Made by a program: the position numbers and the translations under genes
NCBI GenBank assembly: GCA_964644835.1
Contig: CAZXXW010000001.1
Coordinates: 46-64,045, forward strand
Origin: an uncultured Anaerolineales bacterium
Lineage (GTDB): Bacteria > Chloroflexota > Anaerolineae > Anaerolineales > UBA11858
Length of the DNA: 64,000 nt
Direction: 5' to 3'
Notes under the pieces: model-generated
Seen by the model: the letters and a program-made list of their open reading frames with translations, nothing else
Told to the model about the DNA's origin: nothing
The model's database searches: none
In this document: positions 30,977-33,214 of the stretch, one piece after another
How the letters are laid out: each line of letters begins with the position of its first letter
Position numbering within the stretch: position 1 is the stretch's first letter

Positions 30977-33214
30977 ATGAACGCCAAAACGCAATCACCC
31001 GCCTTTCTTCTCGGAGATTCCGGCCGTACCGCCAAACCGCTGGAAAGATATTTACCTCCCATCCCGGAGGGGGGTGCTGCTTCCTGGCTGGAGAAAAACA
31101 TCCCCCGGGGAGGGTTGATTCTGGACCCCTTTGGGGCTGCACCATCCCTGGCCCTGGAGAGCGCCCGCAGCGGCTATCGTTTCCTGGTGGCCGTCAACAA
31201 CCCGGTGCTCGCCTTCCTGCTCAAAACGACCGCTTCAGCCCCAGGCGAAGAAGACCTCAAAGCCACTCTGGCGGCGCTCAGCTCGACGCGCCTCCGGGAT
31301 ACGCGCATCGAGCCCTATATCCGCTCTCTGTACAGAACCCAATGCCGCCACTGCCAACGCAAGACGATGGCCGAAGCCTTCCTGTGGGAAAAAGAGGCCA
31401 GCGTCCCCTACGCGGTGATCTACACCTGCAAGCACTGCCAGGACGCGGGGGAATATCCCGCCAGTGAGGCCGACAAAAAGCTCGCCCAACGCTTCGGTCA
31501 AAGCGGCCTGCATCGTTCCCGCGCCCTCGAGCGGGTCGCGCCTCTCAACGACCCCGATCGCGTCCACGTCGAAGAAGCTCTAGAGACCTATCCCAACCGC
31601 GCTTTGCACATTCTCAGCACGCTGATCAACAAACTCGAGGGCTTGGATCTCTCCGATCAGAATGAGGATCTCCTCGCCGCGCTTCTCTTGACCGCCTTCG
31701 ACCGGGCGAACACATTATGGGCCCATCCGATTGAACGCGAACGTCCCAAACAACTAACCATTCCGCCAAAATACCGCGAGAACAACATCTGGTTTGCCCT
31801 GGAAGCGGCGGTGGACCAATGGCGTTCGTCTCGTTCACCCGTCCCGGTGCGCCAGCACGATGGCAGCCTGCCCCGGGAAGGTAGCGTCGCCTTGTTCAAA
31901 GGCCGGGCCAAAGAGTTGGCGCAGTTGCTGGAGGGTCTTTCCATCGACGCAGTGCTGACCATCTTGCCGCGCCCCAATCAGGCCTTCTGGACTCTCTCGG
32001 CGCTGTGGACAGGCTGGCTCTGGGGTGCGGACGCCGTCCAACCGATCAAAGCCGTACTGCGGCGGGCGCGCTACAATTGGCGCTGGCACACGGCCGCACT
32101 TCATGGTGTTCTCACCCATGTGGCTGCAACGCTCCCACCTGAAACCCCGATGTTCAGCCTAATCGGCGAAACCGAGCCCGGCTTTCTCTCCGCGGGGATG
32201 ATCGCGGCCCATCAGGCCGGATTCATCTGCCAGGGAATCGCGCTGCGTCCCGAGCAAGGTCACGCCCAAATCACCTGGACGTTCAACGATGAAAAGCAAG
32301 CTCAAGAGAAGATTATCGAGCAAACCATTCAAGAGGGAGCCGAAGACTATTTGCTCCGGCGCGGTGAACCAAGCCCTTATTTGACCCTGTTGGCCGCCGG
32401 GTTGAGCGATCACACCCGGTTCAAGCCCCTTGATCAAGAACCAAGCGAGGCCTTTCAGACTTTACAAGCGACCATCGAAACAACGATCTCATACCGGGGC
32501 AGATTCCTGCGTCTGGGCGCGACGGGAAAATCGGCCCAAAGCGGATATTGGTGGCGACAAACCGATGATCAAGCAGAACATCCCCTCCCGCTGGCCGATC
32601 GGGTCGAGATGGCCTTGGTCCGTCATTTACTTCAACATCCCGGCAGCACAACGGACTCCATCGACCAAGCCGTTTGCGAAGCCTTGCCCGGGCTGATGAC
32701 GCCGTCGCGAGAGATAGTCCAAGTTTGTCTTCAATCGTATGGCACCAGCGAAGATGGCTGCTGGCAGATCCGAGAGGAAGATCAGCCCGGCGCCCGGCGC
32801 GAGGATTTGGAGACGATGGGCAAGCACATCGACGAACTCGGCGCCAAGGTCGGCTTTGCCACCGTCAAGATGTCCGACGACCCGCTCCGCTTCCAATGGT
32901 ATAACACCGATGGGGAGATCGAATACCTGCTCTATCTGACTGCATCGGCAGTGCTCGGCAAGCTGATCCCCTACGGCCAGCCCCCCTTGAGCAAGGCGAT
33001 CATCTTCCTGCCGGGAGGGCGGGCCAACCTTGTTGCTTGCAAATTGGAGCATAACCCGGCCTTGAAAGAACAAGCCGAGGGACACTATCGATTTGTCAAG
33101 TACCGTCACCTGCGCCATCTGCTCGCCAGTCCGATGCTGACCCGGGAGAATTTAGACGATCAACTGGCCCTTGATCCGCTCACCTATACGGAACCACAAT
33201 TGCGCTTGTTCTAG
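30977..33214 (+). CDS. Zn-ribbon DNA-methyltransferase-like protein (COG1743-like) with degenerate SAM and catalytic motifs
   Basis: 745 codons from ATG 30977. LILDPFGAAPSLALESARSGYRFLVAVNNPVLAFLLK resembles the [13 protein letters not shown].RLG...a.DLNPVA motif. Two CxxC pairs are present (CRHC 31343.., CKHC 31427..). DAVLTILPRPNQAFWTLSALWTGWLW sits where DAVvTDPPYyd...LSDFFYvWL is expected. Confidence 0.7.
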   Translation: MNAKTQSPAFLLGDSGRTAKPLERYLPPIPEGGAASWLEKNIPRGGLILDPFGAAPSLALESARSGYRFLVAVNNPVLAFLLKTTASAPGEEDLKATLAALSSTRLRDTRIEPYIRSLYRTQCRHCQRKTMAEAFLWEKEASVPYAVIYTCKHCQDAGEYPASEADKKLAQRFGQSGLHRSRALERVAPLNDPDRVHVEEALETYPNRALHILSTLINKLEGLDLSDQNEDLLAALLLTAFDRANTLWAHPIERERPKQLTIPPKYRENNIWFALEAAVDQWRSSRSPVPVRQHDGSLPREGSVALFKGRAKELAQLLEGLSIDAVLTILPRPNQAFWTLSALWTGWLWGADAVQPIKAVLRRARYNWRWHTAALHGVLTHVAATLPPETPMFSLIGETEPGFLSAGMIAAHQAGFICQGIALRPEQGHAQITWTFNDEKQAQEKIIEQTIQEGAEDYLLRRGEPSPYLTLLAAGLSDHTRFKPLDQEPSEAFQTLQATIETTISYRGRFLRLGATGKSAQSGYWWRQTDDQAEHPLPLADRVEMALVRHLLQHPGSTTDSIDQAVCEALPGLMTPSREIVQVCLQSYGTSEDGCWQIREEDQPGARREDLETMGKHIDELGAKVGFATVKMSDDPLRFQWYNTDGEIEYLLYLTASAVLGKLIPYGQPPLSKAIIFLPGGRANLVACKLEHNPALKEQAEGHYRFVKYRHLRHLLASPMLTRENLDDQLALDPLTYTEPQLRLF

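Follow-up and report, generated by a model that had tools for sequence, protein, structure and literature searches.

We propose that an open reading frame (ORF) of 745 codons in a 64,000-nucleotide stretch of DNA from an uncultured Anaerolineales bacterium (contig CAZXXW010000001.1 of assembly GCA_964644835.1; hereafter the window) encodes a domesticated pseudo-methyltransferase that is recruited to the sliding clamp and acts as a non-catalytic, replication-linked DNA-binding factor. We hold this proposal to have roughly an even chance of being right. The protein has retained a Rossmann-like core, an insert of ~210 aa with a four-cysteine zinc ribbon, helical/winged-helix modules and a C-terminal Q-x-x-L-F tail, and it has lost the N-terminal DUF1156 module, the glycine-rich S-adenosylmethionine (SAM) loop, the acidic residue of strand 2 and the (D/N)PPY tetrad. 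We postulated that the protein would have given up methyl transfer and that its terminal QLRLF would dock into the pocket of the DnaN sliding clamp. Docking would place the protein on newly replicated DNA, which it would bind through its basic C-terminal domain, its winged helices and the zinc-ribbon insert; there, it would serve a chromosomal housekeeping process of Anaerolineae, and not phage defence, as a reader or scaffold without catalytic activity. An earlier note on this DNA had described a dead methylase scaffold that was repurposed for DNA binding or sensing. The fold, the loss of motifs and the selection implied by this description were supported by the structure model, motif columns and substitution rates, respectively, while "catalytically dead" is to be read as a deduction from the motifs. 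The idea of a repurposed, DNA-related function gains a concrete form from the conserved clamp-binding-like tail.

An AlphaFold (AF2) model was built from a 35-sequence alignment and showed a predicted local distance difference test score (pLDDT) of 89.2 and a predicted template modelling score (pTM) of 0.86. The order of elements was strand 1 (residues 47-50), a helix, strand 2 (68-73), helices, the zinc ribbon (120-161), a helical bundle and strands 3-7 (304-308, 325-329, 391-397, 416-424 and 429-436). The ~210-aa insert sits where DUF1156 and type-3 BREX methylases have their target-recognition insert. Beyond the core, the model contained helical bundles at 447-503 and one clear winged-helix unit (helix-helix-helix-hairpin) at 539-598, and the last domain (604-717) was alpha/beta, not helical. 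Foldseek against the PDB returned almost exclusively class I methyltransferases (RsmF, NpmA-type, Dam, EcoP15I Mod, TTHA0409 and aTrm11), with probabilities of 0.96-1.00 for several matches; the best E-value was 2.6e-3 and none was at or below 1e-3. Among the viral models of BFVD, the best match was a Pandoravirus DNA N4-methylase (E=1.2e-6, probability 1.0, 536 columns). These matches of the predicted structure support a class I (Rossmann-like) amino-methyltransferase fold that leans towards DNA amino-methylases, in agreement with the methyltransferase fold that the earlier note had expected Foldseek to find.

Sequence comparison supports, as the nearest recognisable family, the DUF1156 type (PF06634, COG1743), i.e., zinc-ribbon N6-adenine DNA methylases known as HmaB in the Hma systems and as "BR-MTases" in BREX-related systems. 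The reference set consisted of true DUF1156 genes taken from plasmids and 120 homologues, all with PF06634, and alignment of these real proteins showed that the DUF1156 consensus given in the earlier note was accurate. Profile-profile alignment (hhalign) of 118 family members with the 120 DUF1156 proteins gave a score of 37.9 (P=0.0028), and the Viterbi alignment spanned motifs I-II only (query residues 27-89). The sub-block 20-95 scored 35.5 (P=1.5e-4), whereas block shuffling gave a null of 18.2 ± 3.0. In reciprocal hmmsearch with ~775 decoy ORFs, the other family filled 59/60 and 53/60 of the top ranks at 6-11 bits, again via motifs I-II. A scan of 38,880 PHROG families yielded a single repeated match, phrog_10183 ("DNA methyltransferase"), which was matched by 22/35 members (best E=0.0015, residues 48-140); the runner-up was matched by just 4/35. 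True DUF1156 proteins match phrog_10183 at ~1e-93, indicating that it is the DUF1156-type methylase PHROG.

The earlier note had aligned two signature regions to DUF1156 methylases. The first, motifs I-II, is statistically supported and makes the homology to DNA methyltransferases detectable; the second, motif IV, rests on its position and not on statistics. In the realigned profile alignment, motif IV was colinear and the alignment began at template column 148, past the DUF1156 module; the global mode of hhalign produced trivial alignments that did not support colinearity. As the note had claimed, the N-terminal DUF1156 module is absent: PF06634 matched neither the query nor any of 35 members. 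PDB Foldseek could not have matched the DUF1156 family because the DUF1156 profile is without a close solved structure in the PDB. We consider it probable that the family descends from, or is sister to, the DUF1156/HmaB/type-3-BREX lineage of N6-adenine methylases.

The same structural matches raise the question of an RNA-directed derivative, namely a degenerate relative of the DPF/(D/N)PPY-type RNA N2-methylguanosine (m2G) methylases (Trm11, RsmD, RlmKL-like) that would be an RNA-binding or ribosome-biogenesis factor. Spb1, RsmF, NpmA-type enzymes and aTrm11 are among the top PDB Foldseek matches, and the gene resembles core housekeeping genes in its behaviour. In addition, PDB sequence searches with the protein and the family profile gave no significant match, only zinc-finger noise and one weak match at motif I, to RsmD-like 1ws6 (E=0.11). 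However, the strongest structural match is a DNA methylase, the only PHROG matched repeatedly is that of a DNA methylase, an insert with a four-cysteine finger after strand 2 is the DUF1156/type-3 BREX architecture, and the beta-clamp motif points to DNA. An RNA-directed origin is thus very unlikely in our view.

The cofactor and catalytic motifs were then read from columns counted over 147 family representatives at 50% identity. Motif I has the family form LDPFGxxPxLxxEA, with D50 in 142/147, P51 in 146/147, G53 in 129/147 and P56 in 144/147. The loss of the SAM-loop GGG, noticed earlier as AAP in the query, therefore extends to the whole family as DPFGxxP. Motif II reads (A/C/S)-N-N-P-(I/V) versus SDLNPV in DUF1156 methylases; the position aligned to the D of SDLNPV is occupied by A/C/S/V, and N75 and P76 are present in 144/147 and 147/147, respectively. 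That is, the acidic residue at the end of strand 2, which in class I methyltransferases contacts the SAM ribose, is also lost, beyond motifs I and IV. Motif IV has the form xx(L/F/I)PR--PNQAFWTLSALWxGWL, which is two residues shorter than in DUF1156 methylases; its near-invariant residues are P331 (144/147), R332 (142/147), N334 (129/147), Q335, A336 and W338 (145/147). The segment DAVLTILPRPNQAFW, which the earlier note had set against DPPY, begins at residue 324 (nt 31946) as it had been placed, and the ILPR-type residues seen in place of DPPY correspond to (L/F/I)-P-R at the aligned position of the family. Between both motif regions, the two CxxC pairs (C123/C126 and C151/C154) that the note had recognised as a zinc ribbon are invariant.

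Canonical motifs were not found at other positions. A motif scan of the query detected no GxG triplet and no (D/N/S)PP(Y/F/W/H) at any position. Among the 147 representatives, no canonical motif occurred at the aligned positions, and (D/N/S)PP(Y/F/W), the tetrad that amino-methyltransferases (N6-A/N4-C DNA, m2G RNA) carry past strand 4, appeared only sporadically and at inconsistent positions. Scanning for GxGxG, FxGxG and [DE]xGxG showed no glycine-rich loop conserved in the family; i.e., an intact FxGxG or (D/N)PPY lies nowhere else in the query and is conserved nowhere else in the family. Each lost signature was replaced by a near-invariant set of residues (DPFGxxP, NNP and PRPNQAFW, plus an Arg/Trp-rich patch). 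From these motifs, we strongly infer that the family no longer transfers methyl groups.

The conservation of the replacement residues could also indicate that the protein is still an enzyme, whose remodelled pocket would bind SAM non-canonically or bind another cofactor and which would modify DNA or another substrate behind the fork. The candidate pocket would comprise D50, P51, G53, P56, N74, N75, P331, R332, N334, Q335, W338 and the RRRY-W-WH patch. The degree of conservation of these residues is what is usual for catalytic residues, N334-Q-A-F/Y337 is spaced like an N-x-x-aromatic tetrad, and a clamp tether would suit a modifying enzyme of the maintenance type. However, the glycine-rich loop, the strand-2 acidic residue and (D/N/S)PP(Y/F/W) are neither present in the query nor conserved in the family, and the counterpart of N334-F337 in the profile alignment is NIGY, the segment after DPPY, and not DPPY itself. 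Therefore, we consider a still-active enzyme unlikely and prefer a non-catalytic protein.

The C-terminal tail, which is newly recognised here and was missed in the earlier note, bears on the proposed recruitment. The protein ends in ...TEPQLRLF. The bacterial beta-clamp-binding peptide has the form Q-phi-x-L-F or Q-phi-x-L-x-L. In Q-phi-x-L-F, positions 1, 4 and 5 matter most, and the motif is often C-terminal; clients with a C-terminal Q-L-x-L-F include Pol II, Pol IV, MutS, Hda and insertion-sequence (IS) transposases (PMC4549789; bioRxiv 10.64898/2026.05.27.728225). Like these clients, the family carries a conserved terminal pentapeptide, assigned by its pattern, on a flexible tail. The pattern Q-[ILM]-x-[LM]-[LF] forms the exact C-terminus of 214/257 full-length members and lies at most 6 residues from the end in 242/257. 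The same terminal motif was found in 0/775 neighbouring ORFs, the four apparent exceptions being family members of unusual length. Conservation covers positions 1, 2, 4 and 5 and leaves position 3 free, which is also the pattern of the clamp consensus. In divergent members, the preceding residues change and QMSMF, QLSIF, QMKMF or QLSFF is kept. The tail (residues 738-745) has low confidence in the AF2 model, with pLDDT below 50, i.e., it is disordered. A limited literature search for bacterial methylases, or proteins resembling them, that bear a clamp motif of this type turned up a single paper, on mismatch repair.

DUF1156 methylases have a looser tail, Q-x-x-(L/M)-(F/L), at the C-terminus of 92/120 proteins versus 3/775 decoy ORFs; examples from DUF1156/HmaB-type proteins are VQERLF, PLQVALF and PEQLSFSL (loci L003-L006, proteins P0121-P0240). 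The AF2 model shows disorder in this tail too. Because it is conserved and disordered, active DUF1156/HmaB-type defence methylases may also bind the sliding clamp. The Q-x-x-L-F tail is a further character common to the family and DUF1156 methylases, and it is a lead in its own right. In DUF1156 methylases, such a tail could instead serve the ATPase and helicase partners, which would favour the alternative that the terminal Q-phi-x-L-F of the family is not a clamp motif and docks onto another partner or folds back on the protein. We regard this alternative as distinctly unlikely, as the pattern of conserved and free positions is exactly that of the clamp consensus, the motif stands at the very C-terminus on a low-confidence segment, and the divergent members keep textbook variants (QMSMF, QLSIF and QLSFF).

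The family is large and unannotated. Scans of Pfam, NCBIfam and PADLOC gave no match for the 745-aa protein, and 35 relatives yielded only weak zinc-ribbon/winged-helix noise. More than 2625 homologous clusters at 90% identity have the same length as the protein; all named ones come from metagenome-assembled genomes of Chloroflexota/Anaerolineales and are labelled "hypothetical". When 1.84 billion representative proteins were scanned in full with the HMMER profile, 1560 matched at E<=1e-3, of which 676 also reached E<=1e-30, and the best 150 of the 1560 matches were all full-length or fragmentary family members. The scan showed a closed family with no bridge to active methylases or DUF1156 methylases. 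Scanning one genome per species placed the family in at least 489 species, mainly Anaerolineales. The species matches listed were all labelled Chloroflexota except for one "uncultured bacterium" contig and one Syntrophothermus contig. The member from Syntrophothermus sp. (Bacillota) lies on a contig of 5.5 kb (L081, JBLNAU010000330.1) and is most likely a binning error, not a true occurrence outside Chloroflexota. No family copy was found in plasmid and phage collections.

The family is under purifying selection and is intact across hundreds of species. The ratio of nonsynonymous to synonymous substitution rates (dN/dS) was 0.20 in the comparison with a relative of 80% identity, 0.15 with one of 70% identity, and only 0.03-0.09 in the last 145 residues. 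The degenerate form is hence what selection conserves, which the earlier note had left to be checked. The conserved residues of the C-terminal alpha/beta domain are mostly basic (R607, R682, K689, K708 and R710, plus W641), and the domain (601-720) was matchless in all libraries searched. The order of its secondary structure elements prompted us to consider an active PD-(D/E)xK nuclease; this was not supported, as no acidic residues are conserved, only R, K and W.

Genomic neighbourhoods were compared by clustering the ORFs of 83 loci (L001, L002, L007-L086 and the window). The commonest neighbour was a ~1120-aa PBP1A-type gene, convergent and just downstream, in 38/83 loci, followed by a MaoC dehydratase gene in 31/83; pyruvate kinase, acetyl-CoA hydrolase, alanine dehydrogenase, amylase and GT2 glycosyltransferase genes were also frequent. 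The PBP1A-MaoC arrangement represents partial synteny across Anaerolineales, and the window differs in that genes for a BNR-repeat protein and valyl-tRNA synthetase lie downstream instead. No methylase, nuclease, helicase, DUF499 ATPase or other defence partner was detected in the 83 loci, and the absence of restriction, BREX or DISARM partners reported for the window is thus general among homologues, whose neighbours are of the housekeeping type without restriction-modification, BREX or Hma partners. By comparison, helicase, DUF499 ATPase or HEPN partners surrounded all four of the true DUF1156 genes fetched. The gene behaves as a widely conserved chromosomal gene of the housekeeping type.

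These neighbourhoods also bear on whether the gene is a defence remnant, i.e., an orphan component of Hma/BREX-related phage defence that is still active, e.g., in sensing or as a decoy. It is from such systems that the methylase of the nearest family comes, and a TIR-domain gene lies 8.4 kb downstream as the sole defence-like gene within 12 kb in the window. However, the 83 loci lack helicase, DUF499 ATPase and nuclease genes and contain PBP1A, MaoC and metabolic enzymes, the protein has no PADLOC match, and the broad, uniformly conserved, Chloroflexota-restricted spread is unlike that of a defence gene. The housekeeping neighbours and the lack of plasmid or phage copies led us to reject a defence island, and we consider a defence remnant extremely unlikely.

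We compared the family with known systems to decide how it should be filed. "BR-MTases" with DUF1156 and type-3 BREX methylases have a Rossmann core, a ~250-residue insert after strand 2 with a four-cysteine finger and C-terminal domains resembling a helix-turn-helix (HTH) (bioRxiv 10.1101/2025.10.09.681413). The family resembles DUF1156 methylases in the motif I-II block LDPF....(L/I)..EA.R.G......NP(V/I), the large four-cysteine zinc-ribbon insert after core strand 2, the order of secondary structure from the zinc ribbon to strand 7, the apparently helical/HTH-like modules past the core and the Q-x-x-L-F-like tail on a low-confidence segment. In contrast, it is without the DUF1156 N-terminal module, is ~200 aa shorter, has a distinct C-terminal alpha/beta domain and shows GGG changed to x-S/A-P, the strand-2 Asp to A/C/S and DPPY to (L/F/I)PR with the two-residue deletion. 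It is also never beside a helicase, DUF499 ATPase or nuclease gene, and is chromosomal and Chloroflexota-restricted. Because the DUF1156 domain, motifs I/II/IV and the operon partners are absent, the family is not to be counted among the DUF1156 methylases; the description that suits it best is that of an undescribed family with its origin in a DNA methylase. The type-3 BREX methylase (PglXI/BrxXI), compared by description, is alike in its short N-terminal prelude that is not DUF1156, its ~250-residue insert between strands 2 and 3 with a four-cysteine finger and, it appears, its HTH-like C-terminal domains (bioRxiv 10.1101/2025.10.09.681413). PglXI is unlike the family in that it keeps the adenine-methylation motifs and stands in a BREX operon, and the family does neither.

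Several points weigh against a clamp-recruited, non-catalytic DNA-binding protein. The clamp motif was identified by pattern only, and its position 5 is leucine more often than phenylalanine, both of which favour a tail that does not bind the clamp. The sequence similarity to DUF1156 methylases is significant over ~60 residues only; in hhalign, the sub-blocks of the zinc ribbon, insert, motif IV, strands 5-7 and C-terminal half were not above block-shuffled nulls. The PDB Foldseek E-values are weak even at their best, and several top matches are RNA methylases. The structural cross-check through a DUF1156 methylase failed owing to a poor model (pLDDT 74.7, core below 50): searching BFVD with it gave no significant match, and the Pandoravirus methylase ranked 9 (E=1.1). 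In addition, a ligand could still be held by D50, N74/N75 and the conserved pocket, and no replication gene occurs among the conserved neighbours in the 83 loci.

Eukaryotic pseudo-methyltransferases offer a precedent for the proposed fate. METTL14 and DNMT3L have degenerate motifs, are nucleic-acid-binding or regulatory scaffolds and are obligate partners of an active paralogue. The family is similar to them in having a methyltransferase fold whose degenerate cofactor and catalytic motifs are kept under selection; unlike them, it has no evident active paralogue or partner, and the lineages are unrelated. For a clamp-tethered methylase-like protein, the analogy is DNMT1, which is tethered to PCNA. 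We tentatively put forward two linked claims, which together we think rather doubtful. First, an Anaerolineae-wide, clamp-tethered pseudo-methyltransferase would ride the replisome and read new DNA without modifying it. Second, the clamp tail would be ancestral and shared with active DUF1156/HmaB methylases, which would be replication-coupled maintenance methylases. If true, the former would be a new type of replication-coupled factor, e.g., one that discriminates between strands or states, controls replication or acts in repair, and the latter would be the bacterial counterpart of PCNA-tethered DNMT1. The analysis would define an extensive protein family that lacks annotation and belongs to the core genes of a bacterial class that is major but has been little studied, and it would be a case in which a DNA methylase of the defence type became a housekeeping protein without catalysis. 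The clamp tail also raises the question of whether Hma/BREX-related methylases are recruited to the replication fork, which would bear on how such systems maintain the marks on host DNA.

Table. Positions of the gene and its features in the window, with the basis of each assignment.
Feature	Position (nt)	Strand	Basis
Putative weak sigma-70-like promoter match, TTGATT-17-TATACT, in the 48-nt gap	30938..30966	+	9/12 hexamer matches
Complete ORF, 745 aa + stop codon	30977..33214	+	Translation; member of unannotated Chloroflexota-restricted family
Methyltransferase-like core, first part (residues 46-90): strand 1, helix, strand 2, helix	31112..31246	+	AF2; sole block with statistically supported DUF1156 similarity
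Degenerate motif I, D50-P-F-G-A-A-P56, in place of DPFaGGG; no glycine loop	31124..31144	+	Column counts; DUF1156 alignment
Degenerate motif II, V73-N74-N75-P76, in place of D-L-N-P	31193..31204	+	Profile alignment; column counts
Insert of ~210 aa between core strands 2 and 3 (residues 91-300), helical + zinc ribbon	31247..31876	+	AF2 secondary structure
Four-Cys zinc ribbon (residues 119-161; C123, C126, C151, C154), TFIIS/Rpb9-like	31331..31459	+	Invariant Cys; weak zinc-ribbon matches
Methyltransferase-like core, second part (residues 301-440), strands 3 to 7	31877..32296	+	AF2; Foldseek matches to class I methyltransferases
Remodelled motif IV region (residues 326-350), VLTILPRPNQAFWTLSALWTGWLWG	31952..32026	+	Profile alignment, columns; not significant alone
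Basic/aromatic patch (residues 360-371; consensus VLRRRRYDWxWH)	32054..32089	+	Invariant V360, L361, R363, W368, W370, H371
Helical/winged-helix region (residues 445-600)	32309..32776	+	AF2; weak winged-helix Pfam matches
C-terminal alpha/beta domain (residues 601-720), most constrained part	32777..33136	+	AF2; dN/dS 0.03-0.09
Terminal pentapeptide Q741-L-R-L-F745, matches beta-clamp-binding Q-phi-x-L-F	33197..33211	+	Pattern; low-confidence tail

Translation showed that the ORF is open over its 745 codons at 30977-33214 (+), with all peptides quoted in the earlier note at their positions. An OmpR-type response regulator gene (30230-30928) is directly upstream and is preceded by a dCache-GAF-PAS histidine kinase gene (27537-30233); the gap of 48 nt between the regulator gene and the ORF was confirmed. 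The promoter-like match at 30938-30966 ends only 11 nt 5' of the ATG, and Shine-Dalgarno sequence is scant. As judged from the nucleotide sequence, both features hint that the ORF may be expressed independently and nearly leaderless, and not co-transcribed with the two-component genes. A GAF histidine kinase gene lies upstream in 29/83 loci, mostly on the opposite strand and not adjacent, and the kinase-regulator pair directly upstream is retained only in the closest relative. A functional link to the upstream two-component system was therefore not supported.

Other genes of the window were also recorded. The TIR-domain gene (41640-42776, -) encodes a 378-aa TIR_2-domain protein (E=1.3e-21) with weak ThsB/SAVED-TIR matches in PADLOC; its stop overlaps the start of a gene for a 503-aa protein (40132-41643, -) with a periplasmic domain of the phosphonate-binding type, and the two possibly form a two-gene unit. 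Two nearby MoeA (molybdopterin molybdenumtransferase) paralogues are encoded at 18750-20711 (-) and 21165-22394 (-), one of which is fused to a C-terminal PBP_like domain. A 384-aa ORF at 47474-48628 (+) had no Pfam match at E<=1e-5. Finally, the gene at 59121-62384 (+) encodes a 1087-aa signalling protein with a seven-transmembrane region (HisKA_7TM), several PAS and GAF domains and a GGDEF diguanylate cyclase domain.

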